Positions 3,601 through 58,455 are shown, counted from the first letter of the stretch. The stretch is DNA of 64,000 nt from Bacteroidota bacterium (GCA_021794075.1 JAJYRM010000005.1:6620-70619); one strand, 5' to 3'. Program-made: numbers and translations. The notes: a model not told the origin generated them from the letters alone.

Positions 3601-3704
3601 TGACGAACCGAGTGTGCCCGACGAGAAAGAACGAAGAGATCCAGATAGTCAGACCCACGGTATGCAATGCCGTCATAGAAGCTTTGTCTTCCGACAAAAG
3701 ATGA
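687..3704 (+). CDS. Lipoprotein fusion enzyme: GH3 beta-N-acetylhexosaminidase (NagZ-like) plus serine beta-lactamase-fold hydrolase
   Basis: Lipoprotein-type signal LLASVLLMSCSS. GH3 motifs KHFPGHGDTQVDSH and GLIVTDALTMGG in the N-terminal ~600 aa. The C-terminal ~380 aa has the serine-hydrolase SxxK motif (FDLASLTKVIATT) and a YSD(IN) motif typical of the class C beta-lactamase/AmpH fold. Confidence 0.85.
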   Translation: MKRLLPILLASVLLMSCSSGHYQTKNDGKLPSSSAGSAQQVNSGYILQQPTGTDYKWIADTAWVDSTLSSLSLREEVGQMIVPFTYAKYMSDNSNSYDELAHLVKEFHVGGFVMSIGNVYEEAMLINRLQKISKIPLLFASDFEYGLGMRLRDAVSFPMNMALGATRDTTLAFKIGHAVGDEARAIGVLQVYAPVSDVNDNPSNPIINVRSFGENPQLVGRMASAWATGAQEAGVVATAKHFPGHGDTQVDSHTQLPTINYPYSRLDTLELVPFRDDIAAGIKSVMVAHIAFPLFQHEVGVPATLSRQITTGMLRDSLGFHGLIVTDALTMGGVTKDYSTAEAAIRAVNAGADILLMPPDDRTAVDAIVKAVHAGVIAHATIDRAVKKILTVKSELGLEKRRFVNVDNIDKVIGSMSHELLAQKAARRSITIVRNIGNYLPLQYHQPQQLLCLTVADDGDPSVGQRFRNELAERCDNIAYAQINPTSNQMNFDDVYKEAEQSNIIVIACYVQWGAGQGTVDFTPQIKDFLNKVAALNKPCIMVSFGNPYLLRSVPIVPAYVCAYSSSRYSVNAAVQALFGEINVTGKLPVTIPNAANYGDGVMLPKTSLQYSPPQEAGFNPVRLDRLDSIMNYWVAKGAFPGAQLLVARHGMIAYDKCFGTLDTSLYSRRVTPNTMFDLASLTKVIATTFAAMKLYDEGKLDLDAPVARYIPQFAQNGKSEVTIRNLLVHDSGLPPDPPHFLWETSAIPQSQLERLLKDPHAFVYADSFGSNFHLAHQAMYDSIYAMPLSYKTGTKMVYSDINFIVLGKVIESITGMPLDQYVEQNFYKPLGMTRTMYNPPSNLWKDCAATEYDSVAGYLLQGVVHDENARSLGGVSGHAGLFSTSEDLAVYAQMLLNGGIYDGRRYLKASTISLFTRKQSDLSTRALGWDTKSPEHSTAGRYFSPTSFGHLGFTGTMIWVDPVRKLFVILLTNRVCPTRKNEEIQIVRPTVCNAVIEALSSDKR

Positions 3705-13036: not shown

Positions 13037-13729
13037 CTACCAGGCCGATACTACTTTTCCGTATAGAACAAGCTTCCCTGTCACGTGCATACTGTTTTCC
13101 AATATGACCCCGTCCGGACCAATCATGGGAGAGTGACAATAGTAGCATGTCTGAAGGGTTATGCCCTTCCCGTTATGCGTCGCATCGTTAGGAGGAAGAC
13201 CGTGACAGCTTCCGCAAGAGTCCTGGCTCGAGTTAACGACGTTCCATGTCGGTGAAGAGTTGTTCCCGCCCTTGAAGTTTCCGTGGCAGTAAGTGTTGGA
13301 ACACTTCAGAGTCTTCGCGTTGAACGAAGGTTGAGGCGTTACCGTGGCGAGGGTGCTGTCATAGAATCGTGTACCCGGTGTATTCGTCTCCGTCATCGCG
13401 ACACCCGAGAAAGTCACGAGAGTCGCGGACGATATGCCGCCCGGATGAATTCCGGGACCAATTGAGGTGGGCACAATGTGACAGGTCGAGCATTCCACCG
13501 TCGAGGCGAACGCGCTCCCGTTTAGATGCACCTGGTGGGCTCCCACGAAAGGAGATGCGGTGCTGGTGTCACCCGCCGCGTCAGGAGGAGGGGCCGGGTT
13601 CATCACGCTTCCGTGGCACGAACTGCAATTCGCCGTCGCAAGGACGCCTGTGTTTTGAAGTTTGCTGCACGATGCCAGCGTCAGTCCTGCAGCAATTATG
13701 AATACTAATCCAAATCGTGTTTTCATCAT
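13037..13729 (-). CDS. Lipoprotein c-type cytochrome (4 CXXCH + 1 CX4CH)
   Basis: I took the start at ATG 13729 (MMKTRFGLVFIIAAGLTLASCS, lipobox LASC). Haem motifs are CSSCH, CSTCH, CSNTYCH, CGSCH and CYYCH. The unit CSNTYCHG...W...CGSCHGLPP resembles the Geobacter CxxxxCH...CXXCH repeat family (TIGR01904, recalled from memory). The start overlaps the upstream stop as TAATG. Confidence 0.85.
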   Translation of the reverse strand: MMKTRFGLVFIIAAGLTLASCSKLQNTGVLATANCSSCHGSVMNPAPPPDAAGDTSTASPFVGAHQVHLNGSAFASTVECSTCHIVPTSIGPGIHPGGISSATLVTFSGVAMTETNTPGTRFYDSTLATVTPQPSFNAKTLKCSNTYCHGNFKGGNNSSPTWNVVNSSQDSCGSCHGLPPNDATHNGKGITLQTCYYCHSPMIGPDGVILENSMHVTGKLVLYGKVVSAW

Positions 13730-14991
13730 TATCTCCCCGGATTGCTCCCATGACAGTAACCGCAAAAGCCGATGCCCGGTTGACCGCCCGGATGGGCGTT
13801 AGGATCGGTATGACACACATAACAAACAGCACCGGGGTCAGTATGCCAGTTCCCATTGACATCATGCATGTACATCGGCGGATGTGTCCTCGGATTGTCA
13901 CCCTGGACTCCATCGGGATCGCTGTGGCATGTAACGCAAACCGGATCGCCACCCTGTATGTCATGACACGCCGCGCAGCTCTCTATATCTCTCCTCGCAT
14001 AGATGGCGTGTCGTCCCCCGCCGGTTCCGACACCATTCGTAACGAAATCGCCGCCGAAGTGCCACACCGGCTCTATCATAGCGCCATTAGCTTCCGAATT
14101 ATGGCATTTCACGCAGAAGTTACGCTCGTCGTGGCATGTATAGCACGTGCTCTCGCGTCCGCTCGCCATTATCCCGTGCGTATAACGGAAATCGGGTGGG
14201 TGAACTTTCTGGGCTGTCGTATTCTTATTGCTGGGCAGCGGAGAAAGAGACGGCGTGAAAGGTACGTATGGCTGACCGGGGGTTAGATCGACAGCAAGGT
14301 TTGCCGCATCGTGGCACTCCTGGCAGCTCGCCTCCGTGTGGCATGACTTGCAGCTATTCTGCGGTCCGGCCATACCCACCAACTGCTGATGGGTCTTGAG
14401 GAAGTTAGGCTGCTGATGTGATTCAGGCACAAGCTTCACCAGATCCTTATGACATTCTTCGCAAGCTCCAGGAGCGGCTGTTATCGGGTGATCCACTTTC
14501 TTAGCGGTGAAATTCGTCTCGCCCTGGCCGTGGCAAGTCATGCACACTTGCATCTTCGGAAGCCCCTTGTTCGGGGCGTTCTCGGCATACGTCACTTTCG
14601 AAATACCTTGATGGCAAGTCTCGCATTTGAGTTTCAGCGAATCTGTGTGCTGGGCATGCGAGAAGCTTACAGGGCTGGGTATCAACGCGAGCTTCCGGTA
14701 AGTCGTCGTGTCCGTCGAAGTATGGCAGAAAGTACATTTCGTCGATGACTGATCATGGCACATGAAACATGTAGACATCGACGGAAGGAGATCTTGTTTA
14801 ATGCTGGCGCTTGTCTTGACATTAGTATGACAATCAGTACACGAAGCGCCAACGTCATTGATATGCTTGCTATGAGAAAACTTTATGAGCGATGAATTGT
14901 CGACCGGCGGAGCCTTCTTGCTCGCAAACAGGGTTGAAATGGACAGAAGCGCTACGATACCGACAATCCCGAAGATTCTAGTCTTTTTCAT
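13729..14991 (-). CDS. Secreted multihaem c-type cytochrome (14 CXXCH)
   Basis: Start at ATG 14991 (MKKTRIFGIVGIVALLSISTLFA), preceded by GGAGG 5 nt upstream. I counted 14 CXXCH motifs and no CXXCK. The track ORF begins 5 codons earlier at TTG. Confidence 0.9.
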   Translation of the reverse strand: MKKTRIFGIVGIVALLSISTLFASKKAPPVDNSSLIKFSHSKHINDVGASCTDCHTNVKTSASIKQDLLPSMSTCFMCHDQSSTKCTFCHTSTDTTTYRKLALIPSPVSFSHAQHTDSLKLKCETCHQGISKVTYAENAPNKGLPKMQVCMTCHGQGETNFTAKKVDHPITAAPGACEECHKDLVKLVPESHQQPNFLKTHQQLVGMAGPQNSCKSCHTEASCQECHDAANLAVDLTPGQPYVPFTPSLSPLPSNKNTTAQKVHPPDFRYTHGIMASGRESTCYTCHDERNFCVKCHNSEANGAMIEPVWHFGGDFVTNGVGTGGGRHAIYARRDIESCAACHDIQGGDPVCVTCHSDPDGVQGDNPRTHPPMYMHDVNGNWHTDPGAVCYVCHTDPNAHPGGQPGIGFCGYCHGSNPGR

Positions 14992-15002
14992 TTGCGCCTC
15001 CG

Positions 15003-16481
15003 TCAATTGCCGCTAAAATTCTTGAAGAAATAGTAATTCACCTGCAGATATCCCCTTAGATCATTTTTGAACACGGGATCTTGATAGTACTGTCCCTGCA
15101 GCGTTATCGCCAGAAGCTTTAACGGACGGTAAGTTACACCGAGCGCTCCGTTATAGAGACGATTTGCCGAAGTAAGCTGTTGAAGGACCTTGTAATCCGT
15201 CGCGGAGGCCGAAGCTATCAAGACGAATCTCTGATTCATGAACGGATATATTACCTGCGCGTTCACGCCGTTCAGATTGCCGGCGAACCCATCGTTATGT
15301 GAGAAACTTAGGGTGAAAAGATATATGTTGGTGCCGACAGTAAATTGATTTGAATTGGCGCCCGTGTAAAAGATTCTGTCATACGAACCGAACGCGCTAA
15401 TATCCTGCGTGAAGAGATAGCTTGCTCCCAGGTCAAGTTCGTCGGTCCCACTGTGATCAAACACAGAAAAAATAGAGTTGTATGGAAGATTTGACGTTCG
15501 ATGATAGTACCCGACATTCGCCGAGAAAGAGGCGAAGGGGGAATATCGGAACGACACTATAGTTCTGTCTATGTCGTAGAGATTCAGGTCATAATCAAGA
15601 CGAAAGTACCCCGATAGGTTGTCGGTAAAGTAAGAAAGATCTCCGGATACGAACCGGTTGGCAATGGCGTCAGGGCTAATGAGAATGCTGTCCTGGGCCC
15701 CAGGGGTGTTGAACGATTCAGACAACCGGTAAGCATAGTAACTTGGCGGCTTGAAGTTTTTGTTAACGTAGGCGCCTCCAATCCGAAAGTTATCGAATGG
15801 AGAATAGTAAGCCTCACCCCCGTAGAGCATGTTATCTTTCAGGTCGGTGTTCAGCTCGATTCTTTCATTCATCGGTGGAAGCGCGCCTCCAAAAGCGAAG
15901 AGAGAGATCTTATCGTCAAAGAGCTTTGCACCGGCGCTTAGTCCGTCAAACGACGACACCCCAACTCTCGAGAAAACCGGCTGCCTGCCGAGTTTCAAGT
16001 CAAAGATTTTTGCAATGTTCCTCGCCTCGAAGTATAGGTTTGCGGCACGAAGGAGCGGGTCGTTCGGCAGTTGAGTCATGAAATCGTTAGTAGCCAGAAG
16101 ATAAGTATGCAGCTGATAATTGCCTGAACCGAAATTCAGCTGCATCGCTTCAAACCCGCGCAGGCTCAACTTGGCATTGTTGGAAGTATCATACTGTTGA
16201 TACGAATAGAACGTAGTCATGAATCTTCCGCTTACCATTTGAGCACGCGCGTTCCTTACGCCGAACGGGTTCGCGAGGATAAGGAAGACTGCGATAAGTA
16301 ATCCCGGAAGTATTGTCGGGAGAAAGAATCGAGCGGGGAGCGCCCTTTCAGGCGGCCCCGCGCTGGGCCAGACTCGTCGTACGGGTCCAGCCTTATCTTT
16401 TCTGTTTCGAAATCTGCAGTTGATATACGGATGCTTCCGTGCGCTGCATCTTTCTGACGCTATTTCCGGGATACCTTTCAC
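15003..16481 (-). CDS. Predicted outer-membrane beta-barrel protein (porin-like) of the cytochrome operon
   Basis: GTG 16481 (preceded by AAGGAAGG) is the only canonical start that retains the hydrophobic signal segment LPGLLIAVFLILA, with predicted cleavage at ARA/Q. The mature protein is ~410 aa of alternating aromatic/aliphatic strand patterns with Gly/Asn/Asp turns, and has an aromatic C-terminus (YLQVNYYFFKNFSGN). It has no haem motif. Confidence 0.7.
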   Translation of the reverse strand: MKGIPEIASERCSARKHPYINCRFRNRKDKAGPVRRVWPSAGPPERALPARFFLPTILPGLLIAVFLILANPFGVRNARAQMVSGRFMTTFYSYQQYDTSNNAKLSLRGFEAMQLNFGSGNYQLHTYLLATNDFMTQLPNDPLLRAANLYFEARNIAKIFDLKLGRQPVFSRVGVSSFDGLSAGAKLFDDKISLFAFGGALPPMNERIELNTDLKDNMLYGGEAYYSPFDNFRIGGAYVNKNFKPPSYYAYRLSESFNTPGAQDSILISPDAIANRFVSGDLSYFTDNLSGYFRLDYDLNLYDIDRTIVSFRYSPFASFSANVGYYHRTSNLPYNSIFSVFDHSGTDELDLGASYLFTQDISAFGSYDRIFYTGANSNQFTVGTNIYLFTLSFSHNDGFAGNLNGVNAQVIYPFMNQRFVLIASASATDYKVLQQLTSANRLYNGALGVTYRPLKLLAITLQGQYYQDPVFKNDLRGYLQVNYYFFKNFSGN

Positions 16482-16536
16482 AACCCACCTTCCTTTATGA
16501 ACAAAAAAATGAACGAACCCGACGACTGCGCGAGCC

Positions 16537-17088
16537 TTACTGCTGAGGAACTGGGTGAGCTATCTTAGCCCACATAGTTTTGAAGTCGAATCCCTTGAAG
16601 GTCGGGCTCTTCTTGTTATGGCAGGTTTCGCAGAATTTCTCCGCGCTGCCGTCTTTAACCGAGAGGAGCGTAAGACCGTGGGCGACAGCTTCTTTCTCGT
16701 TCTTCATAATGTCCATCTTCATATAGTCCTTGCCGGGGCCGTGGCACGTTTCGCACTGCACGCCGTCTTCTTTGCTGAATCTCGGACCGAGCTGAGAAGC
16801 GGGAGCGTTGTACGCTGTTTCATGGCACTGCACGCACTCAGGTGCATCGGCAGGGCTACCCTTTATTCCTCTCGCTTCGGCGATCTTCTTAGCTTCCGGG
16901 GTCAAGAGGGTTTTATAAGCCTGAGAGTGCTTGCTCGCTTCCCATTTCTGGAATTGCTCGCCACTCTTCGGGGTTCTGTGGCACATGGCGCATACCTTCA
17001 CTCCGACGTACTGGTGGCTGGGTTCAGCGGCCAGCGAAACGGCAGAGGTCAGGGCAAGCGCCATAACCACTAGTGTTAGTGTTTTCAT
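16537..17088 (-). CDS. Secreted tetrahaem c-type cytochrome (cytochrome c554-like family)
   Basis: Start at ATG 17088 (MKTLTLVVMALALTSAVSLAA), preceded by GGAGG. Haem motifs are CAMCH, CVQCH and CETCH x2. The N-terminal pattern CAMCH...W..SKHSQAY is typical of the c554-type multihaem family (PF13435, recalled). Confidence 0.85.
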   Translation of the reverse strand: MKTLTLVVMALALTSAVSLAAEPSHQYVGVKVCAMCHRTPKSGEQFQKWEASKHSQAYKTLLTPEAKKIAEARGIKGSPADAPECVQCHETAYNAPASQLGPRFSKEDGVQCETCHGPGKDYMKMDIMKNEKEAVAHGLTLLSVKDGSAEKFCETCHNKKSPTFKGFDFKTMWAKIAHPVPQQ

Positions 17089-17109
17089 TTGGATACCTCC
17101 ATTTTGATT

Positions 17110-17121
17110 TGGTATATACCA
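17110..17121. promoter_or_regulatory. Perfect 12-bp palindrome TGGTATATACCA in the largest intergenic gap of the cytochrome operon
   Basis: It lies 22 nt upstream of the tetrahaem cytochrome ATG, within the 96-nt gap 17089-17184. Its function is unknown; it could be an operator or an internal promoter element. Confidence 0.3.
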
Positions 17122-17184
17122 GGTAACGTTACAGACGAGACGACCTGAACCGGCCGCTCGCACTTGCATCTTCCTAATATCAAC

Positions 17185-17523
17185 TCAGTTTTTCTTTCCG
17201 CACGCATCGCAATATGTTCTTGTCAAGGCTTTTTCTAACTCCTTCTTGCCGATGAAGGCGGAGCACCGTTCGCAATAACCATAGGTCCCGCTTTTCAACC
17301 TTTGAAGGGCCAACTCAAGCTCCTTGAATTCCGTTTCCATCTTCCTGGCGAGCTCACATCTGTAATCGGGCTCAACTTCGCATCTCTTGTGCTGAATGTC
17401 GCAAACGCTGCATATGTACGCTTCCCCGCTTTCCAAATCGACAAGGTCATCGGGTTTCATATACATCATTTGGAGAACCACGCTAATCCTGTTCCTGATC
17501 AAATTGTTAAAGTGCTCCGTCAT
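17185..17523 (-). CDS. DksA/TraR-family C4 zinc-finger protein (paralogue A)
   Basis: The C-terminal YGYCERCSAFIGKKELEKALTRTYCDAC is CxxC-x17-CxxC, the DksA/TraR spacing. I took the start at ATG 17523 (MTEHFNNL), 8 nt after the upstream stop. The track ORF extends 16 codons further and would overlap the cytochrome gene. Confidence 0.75.
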   Translation of the reverse strand: MTEHFNNLIRNRISVVLQMMYMKPDDLVDLESGEAYICSVCDIQHKRCEVEPDYRCELARKMETEFKELELALQRLKSGTYGYCERCSAFIGKKELEKALTRTYCDACGKKN

Positions 17524-17530
17524 CTGTCGA

Positions 17531-20239
17531 TCAGCTCTCCCTGTCTTTATCTTTGTCTTTCTCATCGTCATCGCTCCCTTTGGGATTTTCTCCGTTCTCT
17601 ACAACGATGTCTCCTGCCTTTTCTTCTTCGCTTAGTATCCTGTCTAATTCCACCGGATGCTCTTCTTCCATCTCCTCTTCGGTGATCGTTCCGAACAGCC
17701 AGGAAAGGTTCATTGGATAGACATCAGGGTTAAAGATTGAGAAGTACATATGCCACACGAGAATCGCGAGGGTCGCTAGAATCGCTTCATAATAATGCAC
17801 GAGTGTCGCTACATCGATCCCGAGAAGAGTGAATCTCCCTACAGTGAAGGTATTGAACCAGAGAAGAAGTCCGGTAAGGACCATCACGGTTGTCCCCCAG
17901 ATGAGCGCCCAGTATTCCGCTTTCTCGATGTAGCTGAACCTATCGAATCGCGGTCGCTTATCGGAAATTCCGAGGTAATACTTCACCGCGTCCCTGACGT
18001 CGGCCGCGTCTTTCAAATTCGGGAGCATGTCTTTGATAAACTGCCTCCCGCGTTGAGTGAAGATTACATAGTACACGTGGTATAACGCCGTCACAATCAT
18101 GATGACTGCGCTGATGCGGTGGATCAGACCACGCAACTCAAACACTCTCTCGCCTCCGCCTCCGATTTCACGGATTAGTCTCACCCACCATGAATCCGGG
18201 AATTTCAACATAAACCCCGTGAAGACAAGAAGAGTGAAGCTCACGAGCAGCCCCCAATGCTGCAGACGTTCGGCCTTGGTCATCCTCACATAGAGTTTCT
18301 TTCCAACATGCTTAAGTTCGGCGGACGGATCTCTTCTGAGTTTCAGTTTCGCCTTCGACTTCTTCACGAAATCGAATACGTTGTGTATCAGCATCATACC
18401 GATAACGCCGAAGATGAGCACCGCGTAGATCTGTGAAATCCAGAAGAGCAGCGGCTGATTGGTCGGCGTGGGAGCGATGTGTACAGGGAACGAAGCAAAT
18501 TTAGCATCGGCTCCAGGATGACACTTACCACATGTCTTGGCAATATTCGCTTTGTTAATTGGAGAATTAGGATCGGACGAAGGTAGTATTTCATGAGCGC
18601 CGTGGCAGCTCGCGCAATTGGCAACGGTCGTCATTCCCCCCTGTTTCGCAAGTCCGTGATAGCTGTCGAGATAACTTCCCACTGCGTGAGCGGGAAGGCC
18701 GTATCTGCTGGTGAGCCTGACTGAACCGTGGCAATGCGAACATGTCTGGACGATGTTGTTCTTGGAAACCGTCGATTGAGGATTGTTCGGAGCAAGTATC
18801 TGATGGTCGCCGTGGCAACTGGTGCACACGGGAGCGCTGTTGTTGCCGTTTTCCATGGCCTTGCCGTGAATCCCGGCCATGTAACGCTTCTCGATCCCAG
18901 AGTGACACCCGCTTTGACCGCAAGTAGCAGGGATATTATTCCTGAATATTCTGGATTTCGGATTTCCCGCGGGAAGCATACTGTGGGCGCCGTGACAATC
19001 GCTGCACGTGGCAGCCTTTAGATTTCCCTTTTCGAGCGCGACGAGATGGACGCTATATTTAATGCTCTCAAGGAACGGACGCGACACACCCACCATCTTA
19101 AAGACAGTCTTGTTATCCAAATGGCAACGCAGACATGTCTTGGGCTCATTCTGCCTGCTCACCGGCGATTCGGGATTGCTGACGGAAACAACGTTGTGAT
19201 CGTTATGACAATCCGTGCAAACCGGAGCAACCGCGAGCCTTTCCTTGTAAGCTTTTCCATGGGAAGACTCCAGGTAGTCAGCCGCTTGCTTCTGGTGACA
19301 TTTGGCACAAGTCGATACAATATTCAACCTGTTGACTGGCGAAGCTGTGTCGCTGGCCGCAAGCATGGAGTGCGAACCATGACAGTCCACACAGGTCGCC
19401 CCCTTGCCGGTTTTCCTGAGCGACTCAACATGAATGCTGTGTTCGTAGGAGTCGACAAATGACGTCATAGGCTTGCCGTTGGCCGCCTTCATCCCCTGGA
19501 AGAGCTTCGGATTAGAGTGACACTTGTAGCAAGCTTCCGAAACATTCTTCTTGGATACATGGGGATCGTGAGCGCTATGGCATGAAACACAAGTCACCGT
19601 GCCTTCGTCAAAAGCCTTCTTATGCACGCTATGGTTAAGATCAGAGGCAACACCTTTGTGGCACTGCATGCAAAGCGAGTCGATCTTCACTCCCTGCAAC
19701 GAAGCGACAGTCTTCACGTCATGAGCCTTGCCATGGCACGTCACGCACGTGAACGGCTCCTTGCCGACGGTTGCCTTCGCATGCGCCGACTGGAGAAACA
19801 CCTTCTTTGAAGCGTGACACGATATACACTTTGCGTCTACTACGATTTTGCTGGCAGGCTTGATATCATGCGTGCCGTGACAGCTCCAGCATTTCACCGA
19901 AGAATGCGCCAAATGGTAATTCGCGCCCTTGGGCGCTAGAAGATTGACGCTGTGACACTGGTCGCAGTCAACGTTTGGAGAGGTCTGTTTGTGAGGCACA
20001 TCATCGGCGCTGAATCCTTGATGACAGTCCGTGCAAGCGACCCCCGCGTCTCCGTGTACCGAGGAACTGAAGATGGCAGGATTGACGTACAGACTGATTG
20101 TCTTCCCATCCTTCTGCATTGTCAAAGTGGAATCGGAGTGACACGCAAGGCAATCGTCGTTTGAGCTGGCAAAAATAGGTCGTGCGAAAAGCGAATTTAA
20201 AAGAATAATGGTAAGTAATGAGAGTAATCTAATTTTCAT
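17531..20239 (-). CDS. Multihaem c-type cytochrome (18 CXXCH + 1 CX4CH) fused to an FdnI/HydC-type cytochrome b membrane domain (CbcL-like quinol oxidoreductase candidate)
   Basis: Signal peptide MKIRLLSLLTIILLNSLFARPIFA. I counted 19 haem motifs, including five tandem paired-CXXCH modules. The C-terminal ~300 aa has 5 hydrophobic helices with ERLQHWGLLVSFTLLVFTG, LIHRISAV..LYHVYY and LVHYYEAI..VWHMY, the His pattern of PF01292-type dihaem b. Confidence 0.85.
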   Translation of the reverse strand: MKIRLLSLLTIILLNSLFARPIFASSNDDCLACHSDSTLTMQKDGKTISLYVNPAIFSSSVHGDAGVACTDCHQGFSADDVPHKQTSPNVDCDQCHSVNLLAPKGANYHLAHSSVKCWSCHGTHDIKPASKIVVDAKCISCHASKKVFLQSAHAKATVGKEPFTCVTCHGKAHDVKTVASLQGVKIDSLCMQCHKGVASDLNHSVHKKAFDEGTVTCVSCHSAHDPHVSKKNVSEACYKCHSNPKLFQGMKAANGKPMTSFVDSYEHSIHVESLRKTGKGATCVDCHGSHSMLAASDTASPVNRLNIVSTCAKCHQKQAADYLESSHGKAYKERLAVAPVCTDCHNDHNVVSVSNPESPVSRQNEPKTCLRCHLDNKTVFKMVGVSRPFLESIKYSVHLVALEKGNLKAATCSDCHGAHSMLPAGNPKSRIFRNNIPATCGQSGCHSGIEKRYMAGIHGKAMENGNNSAPVCTSCHGDHQILAPNNPQSTVSKNNIVQTCSHCHGSVRLTSRYGLPAHAVGSYLDSYHGLAKQGGMTTVANCASCHGAHEILPSSDPNSPINKANIAKTCGKCHPGADAKFASFPVHIAPTPTNQPLLFWISQIYAVLIFGVIGMMLIHNVFDFVKKSKAKLKLRRDPSAELKHVGKKLYVRMTKAERLQHWGLLVSFTLLVFTGFMLKFPDSWWVRLIREIGGGGERVFELRGLIHRISAVIMIVTALYHVYYVIFTQRGRQFIKDMLPNLKDAADVRDAVKYYLGISDKRPRFDRFSYIEKAEYWALIWGTTVMVLTGLLLWFNTFTVGRFTLLGIDVATLVHYYEAILATLAILVWHMYFSIFNPDVYPMNLSWLFGTITEEEMEEEHPVELDRILSEEEKAGDIVVENGENPKGSDDDEKDKDKDRES

Positions 20240-26336: not shown

Positions 26337-26807
26337 TCAGGGGACGACGAATTCGTGCTCGTGGGGACGGATGGTAAGCACCGGGCAAGGAGCCTTCCTC
26401 ACCACCTTATCTGCGGTGCTTCCAAAGAGAACATGATCCATGCCTGTTCTGCCATGCGAAGAAATGACTATGAGGTCTGTGTTTTCAGACTTTGCTACTT
26501 CGACGATTTCGATGAATGGTTTGCCAATTCTGATGATTGGAGTGGCCTTGATACCGGTTGGAATTTCTCTCGCGACGAGTTCGGTCAGCTGCTCCTCGCT
26601 ATGTTTCCTGATTTCTTCTTCCATTGCCGGAATGCTTACCTGCCCGAAGCTGAAATCGGCAGGATAGACTATCGGTTCGACGATGTGAAGGACAATCAGC
26701 TCCGATTTGAAGAGCTCCGCGAAAGTCACGGCATACTTCAGCGCATGAAGGGAATATTCTGAGAAATCCTGCGGCACAAGGATCTTTTTTAGACTAACGG
26801 TCGACAT
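26337..26807 (-). CDS. Universal stress protein (UspA family)
   Basis: KKILVPQDFSEYS, DLIVISSHGRTG and GSTADKVVRKAPCPVLTI. Confidence 0.9.
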   Translation of the reverse strand: MSTVSLKKILVPQDFSEYSLHALKYAVTFAELFKSELIVLHIVEPIVYPADFSFGQVSIPAMEEEIRKHSEEQLTELVAREIPTGIKATPIIRIGKPFIEIVEVAKSENTDLIVISSHGRTGMDHVLFGSTADKVVRKAPCPVLTIRPHEHEFVVP

Positions 26808-27363
26808 CTTCTTTTCCCCCTACGTTTTTCTCTAACCTTTCGAGATTGGCGCTCGCGTTACCGAGTTGCTCATTCGTTATCCTCAGACGCGTCCCGATTA
26901 CCTCGCCGAGTTTGAAGAGAATCTTCGTACCGGATTTCGGAGAACGGTTGAGGAGATCTATAAGATCAGGCCTGAAAAATCCTATGATGCGGGAATGTCC
27001 TTTGGCGATAGCAGATGCGCTTCGTGGGGATTCATCGAGGAGAGACAGCTCCCCAAAAAAATCGCCTGTCTTGAGAACCGCCAGCGTCTTCTGAACACCA
27101 GCCTGGTCGGTAAACATTATCTCTACCTGGCCATCCTGGACCACGTACATGCCGAGTCCCGGATCTCCCTGACTAAAAACAAATTCGTTGGACGTGTATT
27201 CCCTTTTGTGAACTATGGCCGCCAGCTTACGAAGTTCCCTGGCCGTCAGTTGGGAAAAGATGGGAACGCTCGCAAGCAGAGCCTCGAGCGAGTTATCTTC
27301 TTCCGACCTCTTCCTGAAGAAGTTAGACCATAAGCTATTTTGACCCAGTATCTCCTGTGCCAT
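26794..27363 (-). CDS. Stand-alone cyclic-nucleotide-binding domain protein
   Basis: cNMP-binding barrel motif GDFFGELSLLDESPRSASAIA with no recognisable output domain. It overlaps the usp start by 14 nt. Confidence 0.85.
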   Translation of the reverse strand: MAQEILGQNSLWSNFFRKRSEEDNSLEALLASVPIFSQLTARELRKLAAIVHKREYTSNEFVFSQGDPGLGMYVVQDGQVEIMFTDQAGVQKTLAVLKTGDFFGELSLLDESPRSASAIAKGHSRIIGFFRPDLIDLLNRSPKSGTKILFKLGEVIGTRLRITNEQLGNASANLERLEKNVGGKEDVDR

Positions 27364-27374
27364 CGCCCGCAGAG

Positions 27375-28298
27375 TTAGTCATAAACGAAAGTAAGCCAAT
27401 CGTGCTTGTCTTCTCCGTCCTTCACTACTTTGAAGAACCGTTTCTGCATCTCGCGAGTAACGGGCCCCGGTTTTCCTGTGCCCACTTTTATTTTATCGAC
27501 GGACCTTATCGGGGTAATTTCGGCGGCCGTTCCGGCAAAGAACACTTCGTCGGCGAGATAGAGTATCTCGCGAAGCATGGTTTCTTCTCTTACTTCGATG
27601 CCTGCTTCCTTCGCCAGTTCCATGATAGTGACTCTGGTAATCCCGGGGAGTATAGCAGACTTGACAGGACTGGTAAACATCACTCCGTCATGCACGACAA
27701 AAACATTTTCACCGCTTCCTTCGCTGATATACCCCTCCGCGTCGAGGGCAATTCCTTCCGAGTAACCGTTCGCAATCGCCTCGAGCTTTATGAGCTGCGA
27801 GTTCATGTAATTGCCGCCGGTCTTTGCCATCGTCGGGAAGGTGTCTGGCATTGGACGTCTCCAGCTGGAGACGCAAACATCGATGCCGTTATCGAGCGCT
27901 TCCGAACCTAGATACTGTCCCCATTCCCAAACGGCCACTACCGTATCGACCGGATTATTCGCAGGGTTAACGCCGACGTCGCCGTAACCTCTGAAAGCTA
28001 TCGGACGGACATAACACGACTTCATCTTGTTGGCACGTATCGTGTCGAGCACGGCGGCTTTCATTTGTTCGCGGGTATAAGGGATTTCAGTACGATAAAT
28101 CTTTGCAGAGTTCTCGAGACGTTTCAAATGCTCTTCCAGCCTGAACACGCCTGCGCCTCTGGCGGTGTCGTAGCAGCGTATTCCCTCGAACCAGCTTGTC
28201 CCATAATGGACCACGTGTGAAAGGACATGTATCTTCGCATCGTCCCAATTAACCAGCTTCCCGTTCATCCAAATCTTATCTACTTTCTTAACTGCCAT
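27375..28298 (-). CDS. ilvE: Branched-chain-amino-acid aminotransferase (class IV)
   Basis: 307 aa with HVVHYGTSWFEGIRCY, RGYGDVGVNP and AAEITPIRSVD. Confidence 0.9.
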   Translation of the reverse strand: MAVKKVDKIWMNGKLVNWDDAKIHVLSHVVHYGTSWFEGIRCYDTARGAGVFRLEEHLKRLENSAKIYRTEIPYTREQMKAAVLDTIRANKMKSCYVRPIAFRGYGDVGVNPANNPVDTVVAVWEWGQYLGSEALDNGIDVCVSSWRRPMPDTFPTMAKTGGNYMNSQLIKLEAIANGYSEGIALDAEGYISEGSGENVFVVHDGVMFTSPVKSAILPGITRVTIMELAKEAGIEVREETMLREILYLADEVFFAGTAAEITPIRSVDKIKVGTGKPGPVTREMQKRFFKVVKDGEDKHDWLTFVYD

Positions 28299-28317
28299 TT
28301 TACTCGATGTCCTCCGC

Positions 28318-29436
28318 TTAAAATTCTTTCTTATATACTCGATAAGTCTTATAGCGCTCCGCGTTCATCAGGTCGGCGCTCCGGTTCATCATCAGGTTAT
28401 CCTCGAGCACCCACGAGGCTTCTCCGTCAAAGTATCCGCGTGCTATACCTCTCTTCGCCGTTTCGTGGAACAATACCGCGGCTATTCCGGTCTGCTGATA
28501 ACTATGGATTACGCCGAGCACCATAATCCTTAGCCAGTGTATATCTTTCTTCTTCGTAAGCAGATGATACACACCGGGAAGAATATGTCCTTTTTTGTTG
28601 AACTTCAACGCATAATTGATATCCGGAAGCGAGAGGGCAAATCCAACCGGCTTCCCCTTTGCCAAAGCGAATATCGCGAGGTCAGGGACCACTACCTGCT
28701 TGAGATCTTCCGCGAGGAAGTCAAACTCTTCATCCGTCATCGGTACGAAGCCCCAGTTTTTACTCCACGCTTCGTTGTAGACTTCTTTGACGAGCTTTAT
28801 TTCATCGTTGATATTCTTCATGTTAATGCTTCTGAATGTGAGCTCTTCCTTATGAGTCACCATCCTCGAAACACGTTCAAGCTTTTCAGTGAATACCCTG
28901 TCCTTTGACACGTGATAAGCGTAAAGATCTTTTTCCTTCTTCAATCCATAGTTCGTGAACAAATCCAAATAGTACTTAGGATTATATGTCATAAGGACCA
29001 GCGGACTGCTGTCGAACCCTTCCACGAGAAGACCGACCTCGTCGTTTGTTGACGGGTTCATCGGACCGCGCATCGAGGAGAAGCCTTTCTTCACGATCCA
29101 ATCTTTGGCTGTGTCGAGAAGACTATTCGCGACCTGCTGATCGTTTATCGACTCGAAAAATCCGAAGAAGCCGATTTCCTCATTATGGAACTTGTTGTGA
29201 TTGTAATTAATTATGGCCGCGATCCTCCCTACAAGCTCGCCATCCTTTCTCGCCAGAAACATTTCCATATCGGAGTGCTTGTAGAAGGGATTTTTCTTTG
29301 TATTCAAGAGTTTTTTTCGGTCCATGAGCAGCGGAGGAACCCAGTAAGGATCCCCCTTATAAATCTTCCACTGAAGTTTTATAAAAGCCATGAGGTCCTT
29401 GTCGGTGCGAACGGGTTCGACGGTAATATTGCTCAT
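28318..29436 (-). CDS. GNAT-like acyltransferase-fold protein of unknown specificity
   Basis: Start at ATG 29436 (MSNITVEPVRTD), preceded by GAGGA. Features are LVGRIAAIINYNHNKFHNEEIGFFGFFE and a second half with GIAAVLFHETAKRGIARGY (acyl-CoA-binding-like). The family assignment is tentative. Confidence 0.55.
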   Translation of the reverse strand: MSNITVEPVRTDKDLMAFIKLQWKIYKGDPYWVPPLLMDRKKLLNTKKNPFYKHSDMEMFLARKDGELVGRIAAIINYNHNKFHNEEIGFFGFFESINDQQVANSLLDTAKDWIVKKGFSSMRGPMNPSTNDEVGLLVEGFDSSPLVLMTYNPKYYLDLFTNYGLKKEKDLYAYHVSKDRVFTEKLERVSRMVTHKEELTFRSINMKNINDEIKLVKEVYNEAWSKNWGFVPMTDEEFDFLAEDLKQVVVPDLAIFALAKGKPVGFALSLPDINYALKFNKKGHILPGVYHLLTKKKDIHWLRIMVLGVIHSYQQTGIAAVLFHETAKRGIARGYFDGEASWVLEDNLMMNRSADLMNAERYKTYRVYKKEF

Positions 29437-29491
29437 CTGGTTTCCTCTGTTTAGTGCTACACTAGTAGAATTAAGGTTTAAAGCCTGATCT

Positions 29492-30727
29492 TCAGGCAAT
29501 GACTCCAAGCTCTTTGCCGATGACTCCAAAAAGCTCCACAATCTTATCGAGATGCTCCTTTTCATGAGTCGCCATGTAACTGGTCCTCAACAACTCACCT
29601 CCAGGAGGCACGCCGGGCCGGACAAAAGCGTTCGCATAGACGCCGGCATCGAAGAGCTTCTTCCAGAAAAGGAGAGTCTTCATGGTCTCGCCGATAATCA
29701 CGGGAACGATCGCCGTCTTGTTCTCATACACTTTGAAACCGAGCTGCTTCAACCCTTGTCTGACTCTATCTGCATTACTTATGAGCCTGTCCACGCGCTC
29801 CGGCTCTTCTTCAAGTATCTTCAGCGCTTCGATCGTCGCCGCGACAGATGCAGGCGTCGGACTCGCGCTGAAAATATAGGCCGGAGAGTTGTGCCTTAGG
29901 TAGTTTATGACAGCCTTACTACCAACTACAAACCCGCCAAGCGAGGCGAAAGTCTTCGAAAACGTTCCCATCACAAGGTCGACATCGTTGTCGAGTCCGA
30001 AATAGCTCGCCGTTCCTCGTCCGCCCTTCCCTATCACACCCACGGAGTGAGCGTCGTCTAGCATTATTCTCGCGTTGTACTTCTTCGCGACCTTAACCAT
30101 CCCCGGCAAATCAACTATATCCCCGCTGGTCGAGAATACTCCGTCCGAGACGATCAGTTTCGGAGCCTCCAGCGGAAGACGTGATACGACGCTTTCAAGG
30201 TTCTGCACGTCGTTGTGCTTGTACCTTACCAGCTCAGCGGTCTGCCCTTTTGATATGAGCGTGCCGAGGACAATGCAGGCATGGTTATCACGATCCGAGA
30301 TTACATATTCACCGTGCCCAACAAGCGTCGAAATGACGCCGAGCGCGGTCTGGAAACCAGTGGAATAAGTAAGGCACGCCTCCTTGCCCATGAACTTCGC
30401 GAGGCGTTCTTCAAGCTCGATATGGAGATCGACAGTGCCGGTCAGATACCGGGAGCCCGAGCATCCGGTCCCATACTTCTCGATAGCCTTCTTGGCCGCT
30501 TCCTGGACTCTCGGGTGGGTCGTCAGGCCGAGGTAATTGTTGGATCCGGCCATTACGACTTTCCTGCCGCCGATCATGACTACCGGTCCCTCGTTTTCCT
30601 GGAACGCATGTGAATATGGATAGAGTCCCTGCTTCTTTACCTCGTCTGCAAGCGTGTAATCATTGCACTTCTGAAATATGTCCAATCGAGTTTGCCTCCT
30701 ATTAGTGGATGTGGAAACTGTTTCCAT
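29492..30727 (-). CDS. PLP-dependent alpha-oxoamine synthase (serine palmitoyltransferase / KBL / BioF family)
   Basis: [31 protein letters not shown] and the Schiff-base lysine in [12 protein letters not shown]. Confidence 0.85.
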
Positions 30728-30838
30728 CGTTTTTTAAATATATATTTCAGGTCAGAAAAATGCTAACCGAGGCTCTTCGGCACGTTTTCATGTCGAAGTT
30801 CATCTTACCCAAACTTTTCCCCATGCCCTCCTCCCAAT

Positions 30839-32029
30839 TCATTCCTCCGGATTTGCTTCGCACTTCTCAATGTCTTTTGCCTTCCCACTCCCGCCGATGC
30901 TGAGGACGAGATAAGGAACACAAAAAATAAAATATCCGACGTCGAACCTGTTTCTCAGGAACACGCCCTGCCAACCGACGTCAACTACTCTCGCGACAAA
31001 TGCCCAGAGGACAAGAAGGAAAAGCAGGATACCCGCATAGAAGAAAATATCTTCTATGTCTTTTGACGATAATCCGATAACAATCGAAAGCACGAGCGAT
31101 ACGCCCATCATCCAGAACGGCACATAGCCGAACTGCACAGCGAATGGTCCGTCTAACATAAACTCACGGGAGTTCCAAATAATGAACGGAAGGAATGTCG
31201 CGAAAAAAACGGCAATCACCGTCAGTGAAAAAATGAGCCCGTTGAAAAGACTCTTTTTCAGGAATTTGAACACGACGTACGGAGAATAAAGGAGCGCCAC
31301 TATGCTTCTCGTTGAAAGAGCCAGTCCCAGCAGTATAGCAGTGAAGAAAAAGTTTGAGTCTCGCTTTGATGGATCGACACGTTCATCAGCCACAAGCATG
31401 AGAACGGCAATTAAAGACATGTTAAAGAGTAACTCGCTTCTTGTAACAAGCTCGTAATAGGTTGTGGGTAGAAGCATCATGATCATCAACTGCATCTTAG
31501 CCCTTTGAGAGTCACGACCGCTTAAGATCAGCGCGGAAATCCCGAATAACAATATTCCAGCGGCTTCCAGCAGCCCCGTATTCCCCAGGAGATAGAACGG
31601 GCTCGCTGCAAAGAAAAGGCCCGGAAACGCGGACGGATTCAGCGAAGTACCGTACGGATAATGCCCACTGAAAAGGGCATTGAGCCATGCGGTGATGGCG
31701 GGGAGTCTGCTCACATCACTTCTATCCGGCAAAACTACCACCGCGATTATTGAAGCCAGGGTCATGAAAGATATTAGCAGTAACGCGTTAAGATGAAATT
31801 TCTGAAGGATCCTTTTTCTATCCGCTTCCGTCAACCCCCAAACCGCGACGAGGAAGACCGCGACATAAAGAATACCATCTATCCAGCCGTGAGACATGTG
31901 CCGCCCGGCATACTTCAAGACAAAAACCCCGCCGACAAAGCTGAGGATCGCGGCGGCTAAGAAGCTACGCGGATTGTAAGAAGCTTTTCCCAAAGGAGTT
32001 GATATTGATTCGTTGTGGAGTGCGCTCAC
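30839..32029 (-). CDS. Polytopic integral membrane protein (~10 TM), family not recognised
   Basis: Hydrophobic helices are spread over the whole 396 aa with no soluble domain. The topology resembles GT-C or O-antigen-polymerase-like proteins, but I recognised no diagnostic motif. Confidence 0.6.
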   Translation of the reverse strand: MSALHNESISTPLGKASYNPRSFLAAAILSFVGGVFVLKYAGRHMSHGWIDGILYVAVFLVAVWGLTEADRKRILQKFHLNALLLISFMTLASIIAVVVLPDRSDVSRLPAITAWLNALFSGHYPYGTSLNPSAFPGLFFAASPFYLLGNTGLLEAAGILLFGISALILSGRDSQRAKMQLMIMMLLPTTYYELVTRSELLFNMSLIAVLMLVADERVDPSKRDSNFFFTAILLGLALSTRSIVALLYSPYVVFKFLKKSLFNGLIFSLTVIAVFFATFLPFIIWNSREFMLDGPFAVQFGYVPFWMMGVSLVLSIVIGLSSKDIEDIFFYAGILLFLLVLWAFVARVVDVGWQGVFLRNRFDVGYFIFCVPYLVLSIGGSGKAKDIEKCEANPEE

Positions 32030-32120: not shown

Positions 32121-34361
32121 CTACTTGTGAATCAACGCGATCTTTGTGACAGAACTTTGGCTGCCGTCAGAACTATAGGCCACGACAATATAAACTCCTG
32201 TAGGCAGAATATTCCCAGATTGATCGGTGCCGTTCCAGTAAGCGACATTTCCTCCCTGGGCTTGGAACTGGTCAACCAACTTACCGTCGATGCTGAATAT
32301 TTTTATCTCGCTGTTGGCGACCAGCCCTTCGATGTGGATTGGCTGTGAAATCGGAAGAACCGCCGGATCAGGGAAAACTTTTAGCTTCGCGAAACTCTGC
32401 AGAGGGAGTTTGACTCCGGTCTTCAGCTCGGTAATTCCATATTCGGTTGCCATGTAAACTATTCCGTCCTTCCTGTCGCAGGCGATCGAAACAACTTTGT
32501 CGCTTGGGAGAGGACTATTAGCAGTGTTGTAACTTGCTACCGATGTGTTGCCATCATTGGAAATGACATACACGCCAGTGTTGGTTGCCACCCATTTTTG
32601 GTCGAGCGCATCATAATCAATGGAGTTTATGAACTGGTCGTATAACGAATAAATCGTACTTATATAAAAAACGTTTGCTGGGTCCGGGTCATATATGGCC
32701 ATAAGCCCAAGTGACGTTCCGATCCAAACCTGGTCGTCGTTGTCCACGACGACGGAGTTAACCTGGTTGCTCAGCAGGCTTGAGTTGTTAGTGGTGAAGA
32801 GGTATGACTGATCATCCGAGAGATTATCAAGCGTCCCGTTATCGTTATAATAGAAAAGGCCGCCGTAACCGATCCCCGATGCCTGGCCGAAGGCATCTCC
32901 CGTCCAGACGCCGTTGTAAGCGTCGATCGCGATCGGAATGAAGGCAGAAGTCTGTCCCAAGCCATTATGAAATGAATGCCACGTAGAGTCCGAGGGTGAA
33001 TATACATCGAGGGAGTTGCCGTTGTATGCAAGAGGGTTGGTAATCCATATGTTGCCGGACTGATCACACGCCGCATTGCCAACGAGAACATAGTTCGCGC
33101 TATTCGGCTCCCCCACTAAAGTAGAGTTGGTGTTACCGTAGTACTTGGTCGTATCTCCCGACATCATCAGCATGCCGAATCCCCATGTCCCCAGTATGAT
33201 TTTGTTTCCGCAAACCGCGCTCACGTATTTCACGTTCTGGTTTGACTTCAACTGAGGGAGGTTGCTCTGATAATAATTCTTCCAGTTCGTGCCGTTGAAT
33301 TCCATGAAGGCTACACCGGCGGGATCACCATTATTTGCAGCGCACCAGAGATTGCCGGACGAATCCACAGCAAGATCAGATATTGTATTCGTGGCAGGCC
33401 CGGGCGGAAGCAAAAACTGGCTTGATGCTCCGACGACTAACATCCCGTTTGCGGTCGCAGCAAACATGAGCGTATCTGAATACTGCGCCACCCCGTTAAG
33501 CTGAGTACCTCCGGAATAGAGCGTTTTAAAGGAACCATCAGTCGAGCTCAAGCTATACAAGCCAGAAGCAGCATTCACGAGGAGATCCGAAGATGTCGGC
33601 GTCAATGTGTGGATACCGCCGCTCGGCGATCCTGTGACAAGCTGGAATGTAAATCCATCGCTCGTATAATAGAGTCCGCCCTTCGTCGCGACGAACAATT
33701 TCCCATCGAAAACTTCAAGGTCATTTACGCCGTTGGCAAGTCCGAGCGTATCCGCGAGCCGCCACAAGTCGGGGGCGGCGAGGTTGATCGCCGACGTCGG
33801 CGCATATGAAAGGCCGAATTGGCTTCCCACATAAATTCTTCCGCCGAAAACTGCGACGGCGTTCGACTGTATTGAACCCTGCTTGGGATCGAAATGGGAA
33901 TACGTATCCAACACATTGAAACTCTTGCGCGAGATCAGGACTACTCCAAACGGGGTACTCGCGAAGATCGTATCGCCGGCAATGGAGAGCGACGTAATTT
34001 CTTTGGTAAGGGCGGAGAAATCAACGATGCCTCGCTGCGACCTGATAACCCTTCCCGTAGAATCCAGCTCATCAATGGCGCCGTTCACCTCACCGACAAT
34101 CAAACGCCCCGAAGAATCGGAGCATATCGCAGTCGCCTGTATGTTTGAGAGTCCTTCTGTGGTCGTGAATTCAGAAAAAGCTCCAGTCGAGGGAGCATAT
34201 GAGAATACGCCACCGGTAGTGGCCGCCCACACTTTCCCGCCTGAAACGGCAATCCCGCTTATGTCGTACATGCTCGTGTAGTTCTTCCACGTCAAGGTTT
34301 GCGAAAATGCGGAACCGGCAACCGCCAGCGAGAAAAAAAAGAGAGAGAGTCTTCGGATCAT
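32121..34361 (-). CDS. Secreted beta-propeller repeat protein (two-component-regulator-propeller type) with a T9SS C-terminal sorting domain
   Basis: Signal peptide with cleavage at AFS/QT. Repeated propeller blades are present. The last ~80 aa (KVFPDPA...IKIFSIDGKLV...GVYIVVAYS...IALIHK) fit the Por secretion tail pattern. Confidence 0.8.
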   Translation of the reverse strand: MIRRLSLFFFSLAVAGSAFSQTLTWKNYTSMYDISGIAVSGGKVWAATTGGVFSYAPSTGAFSEFTTTEGLSNIQATAICSDSSGRLIVGEVNGAIDELDSTGRVIRSQRGIVDFSALTKEITSLSIAGDTIFASTPFGVVLISRKSFNVLDTYSHFDPKQGSIQSNAVAVFGGRIYVGSQFGLSYAPTSAINLAAPDLWRLADTLGLANGVNDLEVFDGKLFVATKGGLYYTSDGFTFQLVTGSPSGGIHTLTPTSSDLLVNAASGLYSLSSTDGSFKTLYSGGTQLNGVAQYSDTLMFAATANGMLVVGASSQFLLPPGPATNTISDLAVDSSGNLWCAANNGDPAGVAFMEFNGTNWKNYYQSNLPQLKSNQNVKYVSAVCGNKIILGTWGFGMLMMSGDTTKYYGNTNSTLVGEPNSANYVLVGNAACDQSGNIWITNPLAYNGNSLDVYSPSDSTWHSFHNGLGQTSAFIPIAIDAYNGVWTGDAFGQASGIGYGGLFYYNDNGTLDNLSDDQSYLFTTNNSSLLSNQVNSVVVDNDDQVWIGTSLGLMAIYDPDPANVFYISTIYSLYDQFINSIDYDALDQKWVATNTGVYVISNDGNTSVASYNTANSPLPSDKVVSIACDRKDGIVYMATEYGITELKTGVKLPLQSFAKLKVFPDPAVLPISQPIHIEGLVANSEIKIFSIDGKLVDQFQAQGGNVAYWNGTDQSGNILPTGVYIVVAYSSDGSQSSVTKIALIHK

Positions 34362-57354: not shown

Positions 57355-58455
57355 TCAGAAAGTCATCGTCGTCGCAAGCCTAGAGCGACAGTAGCTTTCC
57401 GCTATCAGTCGGTCGAGCGTATCCTGCATAAAGAAGAGCGCTGGATGGAATGGCGCGGAAGATGCTCCGATTAATTTCGGGATAAGGCGTCCTGCAAGTC
57501 TATCTGCCGCTTCGACATATCTCCCCGAGAACGCGACAGTATCGAACCCGCCCATGACGCTCATCGCCGCTCCGCAGCTCAGGAGAATTCTGTACTCAAG
57601 CAAGTCGCTCGCCTTTTCAAAATCTCTCCCTCCGCGGAGCACTTCAGCTATGGTCGCGTTTCTGCCAACGAGGGCCGTGACCCCACTTTTCCTGGAGAGC
57701 ATCTCGTTAATCCTCTCGGGGCCCCATTTCTTTTTCTCCTCGAGGAGCAGAATAATCCCAGGATCGAGTTCTCCACAGGTCGAGTTACCAGGCAGCCCCT
57801 CGAGTGGAGTGGATCCGCCCGAGACAGTCACCGGCTTCCCGTCATAGATACCCGCCACCTCCGGAATCGGCTCGAGACATATCGACAATATTTTTCTCGC
57901 ATCGATTCCTCTCTCCTTGATTTTGCCGGCAAGCGCGCCGTGGAACAGTCCGTGATAGCCATAACGTCGAATGTCCCCAAGACCTTCGCCGTAGGCTTCA
58001 GAGAGATTCCCATCGATGGCGTAAGTTCTTTCGCCGAGCGGCAGGTTGGCGAAGAACGCGGTTTCAAAGAAAAGGTAAATCTCCGGCGTGGGAACGATTC
58101 GCTCCAGCGCCTTAAGCAATCTGACCGAGGGGGGAATGTGTAACGGGGACCGCGCCGCAAGCGATTCGAGTCGTTCGAGTATCGACCTGTCATAAATCTG
58201 CGTTCTCTTGAATTCCTCACCGCCGTATAGAATTCGTACGGCAATTGCCTCGGGGGAATATTTTCCTATAAGCTTGCGAAGCTCTTCCAGTGACAGGCCC
58301 TCGCCTCTGAACCTAATCTTTCCCGTCCACTCTAAACTGCAGGCTTCCCATGGTTTTGTGGCGTGACCGTCCGTCGCCACCGAGTCTGACTCGACAGAAT
58401 AGACATGGTACTCTATGAAATAACCTTCAGGAATTAATACAATCAACCTGCTCAT
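57355..58455 (-). CDS. Acetate-kinase-fold paralogue with degenerate catalytic motifs (pseudo-kinase candidate)
   Basis: It is collinear with the adjacent AckA. LIVLIPEGYFIEY corresponds to FVLNCGSSSLKY, FFETAFFANLP to VLDTAFHSTIP, RRYGYHGLFHG to RKYGFHGISHQ, GNSTCGELDP to MSTRCGDLDP, and FSGRYVE to FTDTIGE. Confidence 0.7.
   Translation of the reverse strand: MSRLIVLIPEGYFIEYHVYSVESDSVATDGHATKPWEACSLEWTGKIRFRGEGLSLEELRKLIGKYSPEAIAVRILYGGEEFKRTQIYDRSILERLESLAARSPLHIPPSVRLLKALERIVPTPEIYLFFETAFFANLPLGERTYAIDGNLSEAYGEGLGDIRRYGYHGLFHGALAGKIKERGIDARKILSICLEPIPEVAGIYDGKPVTVSGGSTPLEGLPGNSTCGELDPGIILLLEEKKKWGPERINEMLSRKSGVTALVGRNATIAEVLRGGRDFEKASDLLEYRILLSCGAAMSVMGGFDTVAFSGRYVEAADRLAGRLIPKLIGASSAPFHPALFFMQDTLDRLIAESYCRSRLATTMTF

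Follow-up and report, generated by a model that had tools for sequence, protein, structure and literature searches.

A 64,000-nucleotide stretch of DNA from a Bacteroidota bacterium (GCA_021794075.1 JAJYRM010000005.1:6620-70619; referred to here, at its full length, as the window) carries on its minus strand an alpha-oxoamine synthase gene (29492-30727, 411 aa), a GNAT-like acyltransferase gene (28318-29436, 372 aa, with its ATG at 29436) and ilvE (27375-28298, 307 aa), and we think it likely that the first two are spt and bcerS, a two-gene module for the backbone of a bacterial (dihydro)ceramide to which ilvE has been attached. The initial annotation had proposed a wider amino-lipid or sphingolipid locus that also took in the gene of a polytopic membrane protein directly upstream (30839-32029, minus strand, 396 aa) and whose product might differ from those of known pathways. 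Its pairing of Spt with a GNAT-family ceramide synthase, together with the branched-chain aminotransferase (BCAT), is kept here, while the membrane protein and the different product are given up. The ORF (open reading frame) listing agrees with the four minus-strand genes and with their spacing, and because each of the four has conserved relatives encoded elsewhere, in other genomes, these ORFs can be taken as real genes rather than chance readings. The best-named homologues of the locus proteins belong to Candidatus Kryptoniota, a candidate phylum of the FCB group.

From its family placement we infer that the synthase is most likely an Spt-like enzyme of the Bacteroidota/CFB type that uses serine. 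It matches Pfam Aminotran_1_2 (192 bits), and its best NCBIfam match is NF047600 SerpalmtaseCFB, the Bacteroidota/CFB-type serine palmitoyltransferase (SPT) model, at 483 bits, followed by the beta-proteobacterial SPT model (379 bits), KBL (372) and BioF (367), a lead of about 100-110 bits for the SPT model over the last two; each of the four scores is under the curated cutoff of its model. The best PDB match is the SPT of Sphingobacterium multivorum (397 bits over residues 18-403, 47% identity), with BioF/KBL entries at about 285 bits and cysteate-C-fatty acyltransferase at 216 bits. Fold and motifs are those of a pyridoxal-phosphate-dependent alpha-oxoamine synthase: the catalytic Lys in GTFSK and the DDAHS and HA(S/C)I motifs are all there, and the pyridoxal phosphate motifs, GTFSKTF included, align with those of S. 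multivorum SPT. Two C-terminal arginines, which we take to be the equivalents of SPT R378 and R390 (S. paucimobilis numbering, S. multivorum alignment), are both kept. In a crude neighbor-joining tree (16 sequences, 383 columns, 100 bootstraps) with S. multivorum SPT, S. wittichii SPT, E. coli Spt, Kbl and BioF, and Thermus BioF/Kbl as references, the window synthase and its relatives group with S. multivorum SPT and are split from Kbl/BioF in 97 of 100 bootstraps; identity to E. coli Spt is 37%. The serine-palmitoyltransferase-like synthase of the initial annotation is thus backed by profile score, structural database match and tree, falling with Spt and apart from BioF and KBL.

That the synthase should be an ordinary BioF or KBL, with the GNAT gene as an unrelated neighbor, is scarcely credible. 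JGI does name one member of the synthase’s 90% cluster “8-amino-7-oxononanoate synthase” (probably a misannotated Spt-like enzyme), and the synthase does reach 367-372 bits against the BioF and KBL models, but both scores lie below their cutoffs in the NCBIfam scan (bioF 367 vs 426, KBL 372 vs 460) and about 110 bits under the SPT model, the tree sets it apart from Kbl and BioF of E. coli and from Thermus BioF/Kbl in 97 of 100 bootstraps, neither Pfam scans nor the genes called on matching contigs showed bio or tdh genes within the 64-kb window, and fusions of the synthase to the GNAT protein occur naturally. On the scores, the tree and the missing bio/tdh genes a BioF/KBL identity was set aside as the leading reading; a CapB-type cysteate acyltransferase was likewise rejected as such, at 216 bits against 397 for SPT.

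The second protein is, by a two-step chain of sequence homology, a member of the YghO/CC_1154 (bCerS) acyltransferase family. The first step is E. coli YghO, found by tblastn against plasmid records, which aligns with residues 4-372 of the 372 at 34% identity (E 3e-74); the second is a published listing of the N-acyltransferase genes as “aca: CC_1154, yghO ECD_02850” (PMC9386255), and it is because of the two together that we make the assignment. The same listing gives the reductase genes as “epi: CC_1164, ECD_02852” (PMC9386255). In E. coli, yghO has as neighbors genes for a fatty acyl-AMP ligase, an NAD-dependent epimerase-family protein, an acyl carrier protein (ACP), a synthase that RefSeq labels “spt,” and lptG/lptF paralogues, and this spt/ACP/reductase/ligase/yghO/lptF-lptG locus is complete in 4,068 of 5,426 complete genomes. 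An alignment of the sphingolipid loci of Caulobacter, Sphingomonas and E. coli, LptFG paralogues included, is given in a 2026 preprint, and in Bacteroides fragilis the knock-out of BF9343_4218 is reported to accumulate 3-ketosphinganine. YghO itself is still annotated as “protein YghO” and nothing else, both in the E. coli PN43 record (NZ_MG591698.1) and in the E. coli genome set.

The GNAT protein matches Pfam Acetyltransf_1 and has no match in NCBIfam or among PDB sequences. Its AlphaFold model (pLDDT 85) has a tandem-GNAT fold, with glucosamine N-acetyltransferase, MshD, FemX and Eis among its structural likenesses and E-values of 1e-14 to 1e-9 for the best PDB structures. It belongs to a large family: among 1.84 billion cluster representatives, a profile search returned 2,485 clusters (50% identity) at E <= 1e-30. 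The longest ORF for this gene (28318-29565, 415 aa) would overlap the synthase gene; however, more than 100 homologues of 370-375 aa align with the 372-aa form from residue 1, and the shorter start, with the 55-nt gap that it leaves behind the synthase, is therefore taken as correct. With full-length YghO homology, the listing of YghO beside CC_1154 and the tandem-GNAT fold, the earlier suggestion that this protein is a relative of the ceramide synthases is supported.

The two genes also travel together. Our counts come from the closest 80 loci of one genome scan (Bacteroides and Caulobacter lie outside its reach), onto which the window proteins and an Ignavibacteriales reductase were mapped, the denominators being the loci with enough flank to be informative. 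The synthase adjoins the GNAT gene in 61 of 74 such loci, and these GNAT-linked synthases are 42-72% identical to that of the window and 47% identical to S. multivorum SPT. A triad of synthase, GNAT protein and reductase is found in Ignavibacteria-like genomes, Melioribacter, Gemmatimonadota, Bryobacteraceae and other metagenome-assembled genomes (MAGs); among its carriers are Melioribacter sp. Ez-97 (L080) and a MAG assigned to Ignavibacterium album (L061). In a Calditrichota locus (L078) synthase and GNAT gene are paired, with no reductase in the flank available. Further, a representative search with the GNAT alignment brought up four fusion proteins. Three cluster representatives join synthase and GNAT protein in one chain (P0183, 780 aa; P0247, 777 aa; P0230, partial); the fusions of 777-780 aa come from independent contigs, P0183 being found on ones of 819 kb, 17 kb and 5.9 kb, and the best match of the P0183 synthase half is again the CFB-type SPT model. 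In the fourth, P0262 (940 aa), the GNAT protein is fused to a fatty acyl-AMP ligase. These natural fusions argue for a shared pathway and for a fatty-acyl donor apart from any argument from gene order.

In related lineages a third enzyme stands beside the pair. An extended SDR (short-chain dehydrogenase/reductase) of 327-330 aa is present in 48 of the 53 loci that have the synthase and enough flank, nearly always in divergent orientation and directly upstream of the synthase. The one in an Ignavibacteriales locus (L004) is 29% identical to the reductase of the E. coli locus (E 2e-38), and the best NCBIfam match of the related-locus reductase is HpnA (below cutoff), with two lipid 3-keto reductases, OleD and SdmB, ranking next. 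NDUFA9 is an extended SDR. CerR has been described as NDUFA9-like (PMC11087976), so the type of the related-locus reductase fits CerR. Five loci have the synthase but not the reductase, and all three of the scan's informative Kryptoniota loci (L012-L014) are among them; two further Kryptoniota contigs (L001 and L008) and the window likewise have none beside the synthase, and in Kryptoniota the place that sister lineages give to the CerR-like reductase is taken by PorZ. Tblastn with the L004 and L005 reductases gave no match in the window. The initial annotation had remarked that no 3-ketosphinganine/ceramide reductase gene was visible, which agrees with our failure to find one within the 64 kb, and had gone on to suggest that the product may therefore differ; the second step is not supported, since a CerR-like SDR adjoins the synthase in nearly all of the informative loci and its absence here looks instead like a local rearrangement in Kryptoniota. 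Sister lineages whose synthases are 65-72% identical to that of the window do carry the reductase.

Directly behind the GNAT gene, at a distance of 19 nt, comes ilvE. Its product is, by profile score, a genuine branched-chain aminotransferase, exceeding two equivalog cutoffs (NF005146, 443 bits against a cutoff of 279; TIGR01122, 425 bits against 246), as the initial annotation had called it. After ilvE follow genes for a cNMP-binding protein (26794-27363, minus strand, Pfam cNMP_binding), 11 nt away, and for a universal stress protein (26337-26807, minus strand, Pfam Usp), which overlaps the former by 14 nt; with spacings of 55, 19 and 11 nt, a single transcript seems likely. Among 73 informative related loci, ilvE lies directly 3' of the GNAT gene in 29, all of them Kryptoniota or the nearest Ignavibacteria-like lineages, and is not at that position in Melioribacter or in more distant phyla, a distribution that makes it a clade-specific addition to the module. 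The Usp gene follows in nearly all of the ilvE-carrying loci and the cNMP-binding gene in about half. Branched-chain amino acids are the reported source of the iso-branched sphinganine of B. fragilis (PMC11961698), which bears out the origin that the initial annotation had given for iso-branched bases and makes a role of ilvE in precursor supply plausible. It may equally be a housekeeping BCAT that shares a transcript. In L004 a gene for a fused E1 alpha/beta 2-oxoacid dehydrogenase (13650-15584, E1_dh + Transket_pyr) lies a few genes downstream of spt-bcerS-ilvE and might be part of branched-chain 2-oxo acid use.

Several observations weigh against the assignment of this pair to (dihydro)ceramide synthesis. 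The 483 bits of the synthase fall short of the NF047600 equivalog cutoff of 640, and serine specificity is for that reason not assured. The link from the GNAT protein to bCerS passes through E. coli YghO and a published homology table. In about 11 of 74 related loci (L038, L050, L055, L060, L063, L066, L073, L076, L079, L083 and L085, which include Kapaibacteria and a Balneola MAG) the GNAT gene has no synthase within about 8 kb; either the genes lie scattered in these genomes, or members of the family may serve a second purpose. Pfam scans, and the genes called on matching contigs, showed no SDR/epimerase-type reductase in the ORFs examined over the 64 kb, and a search with the reductase of the sister lineages gave, among its best 120 matches (>=57% identity), none assignable to Kryptoniota, a result that a diverged copy could escape. 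Finally, the pathway role of ilvE, though plausible, is drawn from adjacency in one clade.

Some of these same points would favor a different N-acyl amino-lipid, made by the same two enzymes from alanine or glycine and ending as a 3-keto N-acyl base or a 1-deoxy type. Besides the sub-cutoff score, the group of GNAT-linked synthases is just 47% identical to S. multivorum SPT, the reductase is found neither in the window nor at its usual position in any Kryptoniota locus, and bacterial SPTs have been reported to make 1-deoxy bases from alanine (PMC11334938 supplement; PMC10056535). Yet the catalytic motifs closely match those of S. multivorum SPT, the characterized cysteate acyltransferase scores far lower, and sister lineages with synthases 65-72% identical to that of the window carry the reductase. 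The presumed counterparts of SPT R378 and R390 are kept as well. On balance we regard a different lipid of this kind as unlikely, and continue with spt and bcerS as a ceramide-backbone module.

As we envisage it, the synthase would condense an amino acid, most likely L-serine, with a long-chain acyl thioester to give 3-ketosphinganine, which the tandem-GNAT protein, judging from homology, adjacency and the fusions, would then N-acylate to an oxidized dihydroceramide. A CerR-type extended SDR, of the kind that sister lineages encode beside the synthase, would reduce the 3-keto group; in Kryptoniota this gene would have been displaced from the locus and would presumably lie elsewhere in the genome. 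The product of ilvE, probably co-transcribed, could plausibly supply branched 2-oxo acids for iso- and anteiso-acyl primers and through them for branched long-chain bases like those of Bacteroides. The polytopic protein encoded upstream would be a separately transcribed, lineage-specific, GT-C-like glycosyltransferase.

This upstream protein (30839-32029) is a neighbor of the module and not a member of it; by its model it is probably a fast-evolving envelope glycosyltransferase of GT-C fold. It has no match in Pfam or NCBIfam. The “~10 TM” (transmembrane segments) of the initial annotation were a fair estimate, with nine strongly hydrophobic segments (Kyte-Doolittle) and an all-helical model (pLDDT 81). 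The top PDB folds for that model are all GT-C (PIGU, GPI mannosyltransferase I, ALG3, STT3/AglB, PimE, AftB), and the matches are weak (TM 0.39-0.48, E >= 1.4e-3). Only 17 homologues were found in total; one of the distant ones is named “Glycosyltransferase RgtA/B/C/D-like domain” in UniRef, and the two most distant (one from Paenimyroides viscosum) abut a glycosyltransferase family 2 (GT2) gene, with no synthase nearby. Invariant residues include E193 and D363, and none in the first external loop is acidic. Compared with the GT-C polyprenyl-phosphate-sugar glycosyltransferases (PimE, ALG3, GPI mannosyltransferase I and ArnT/RgtA-like enzymes), the protein is likewise all-helical and polytopic and has GT-C enzymes as its best structural matches; unlike them, it has no Pfam match, scores weakly, lacks an invariant acidic residue in loop 1 and has no GT2 partner in the window.

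The initial annotation had allowed this protein to add or flip a head group, and a role in the pathway, whether in placing a sugar head group on ceramide at the outer face of the inner membrane or in flipping, would suit both its position and its fold: in the window and in three contigs (L006-L008) its gene lies between PorZ and the synthase, on the same strand and directly upstream of the latter, and its closest folds include enzymes with lipid acceptors (GPI mannosyltransferase I, PimE, ALG3). Against this, Kryptoniota relatives in which the block is otherwise retained (L001-L003, with the other genes 80-88% identical) do not have the gene at that position, and in L008 the protein is 48% identical where its neighbors are 82-89% and the synthase 89%. 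The 111-nt gap between it and the synthase gene (30728-30838) holds, on the minus strand, a weak hairpin of terminator type and, after it, a sequence resembling a sigma-70 promoter (consensus matches only). In addition, its distant homologues sit beside GT2 genes rather than a synthase, no GT2 gene was found in the window, and, among the 80 related loci, none of those outside Kryptoniota has a homologue near the module. A pathway role is, on this evidence, quite improbable, and flipping or head-group addition was set aside as the leading reading on the protein’s absence from close relatives, its fast divergence and the terminator-like and promoter-like matches in the gap. There is also a very slim chance that Kryptoniota have truly lost CerR, so that spt-bcerS-ilvE makes an iso-branched 3-keto ceramide or works with a non-homologous reductase, and that the GT-C-like protein, where present, glycosylates this lipid in the periplasm from a polyprenyl-phosphate sugar; we know of no head-group route of that kind for bacterial sphingolipids.

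Beyond the membrane protein gene lies porZ of the type IX secretion system (32121-34361, minus strand; NF052228, 351 bits, above cutoff). Scans with Rfam and for tRNAs across the window found no RNA genes. Elsewhere in the window, a cluster of multiheme c-type cytochromes (13037-20239, minus strand; Cytochrome_C7, MtrC/MtrF-like) has among its members a protein of 902 aa with a fused cytochrome b561 domain and an ORF of 492 aa without a Pfam match (15003-16481), and a 1005-aa protein (687-3704, plus strand) carries domains of glycoside hydrolase family 3 together with one of the beta-lactamase family. Two adjacent acetate-kinase-family genes lie at 57355-59689 (minus strand), the first of which (366 aa) matches its profile partially, at 113 bits, and a 308-aa ORF at 63041-63967 (minus strand) has no Pfam match.

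These results place the candidate phylum Kryptoniota among the likely sphingolipid producers, along with many genomes from Ignavibacteria-like lineages and Melioribacter, and individual ones from other phyla, that have the same clustered genes. They also bear on public annotation, in which the synthase is called BioF by one source and the acyltransferase is a generic GNAT, and they tie a large unannotated family of “372-aa GNAT” proteins to E. coli YghO and Caulobacter bCerS. The linkage of ilvE in one clade is a small new hint that the supply of branched-chain precursors and the synthesis of sphingoid bases may be co-regulated. The spt/bcerS/cerR pathway itself has been known since 2021-2022. 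A metagenomic survey has extended Spt-like genes with neighboring bCerS and CerR to about 40 phyla (PMC11334938). What is new here is modest: the spt-bcerS-ilvE form of the operon, the displaced reductase of Kryptoniota and the fusion proteins, with the known pathway unchanged.

Among the characterized systems, the capnine/sulfonolipid pathway (CapB/SulA) resembles this locus in that an alpha-oxoamine synthase of FCB bacteria is followed by reduction and N-acylation; it differs in its synthase, cysteate acyltransferase scoring 216 bits where SPT scores 397, and no cysteate synthase gene was seen in the window. In Caulobacter crescentus (spt, bcerS and cerR being CCNA_01220, CCNA_01212 = CC_1154 and CCNA_01222 = CC_1164) and in E. 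coli the same three enzyme families are at work, and homology to the E. coli counterparts extends along the whole sequence or the greater part of it (synthase 37%, GNAT protein 34%, L004 reductase 29%); in the related lineages the three genes are clustered. The window departs from this system in several ways: its synthase falls in the Bacteroidota/delta-proteobacterial subgroup of SPTs and not in the rhodobacterial one (PMC9386255), there are no genes for a dedicated ACP, an acyl-ACP synthetase or LptFG paralogues nearby, the reductase is not in the window, and ilvE is attached to the operon. The closest characterized SPT comes from the Bacteroides/Sphingobacterium pathway (SPT of the BT_0870 type; B. 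fragilis CerS BF9343_4218 and CerR BF9343_4240), namely that of S. multivorum, at 47% and 397 bits, and a further likeness is the link between branched-chain amino acids and iso-branched sphinganine reported for B. fragilis (PMC11961698). In Bacteroidota proper, however, the three genes are scattered (PMC11334938), whereas in the window spt and bcerS stand together in one operon.

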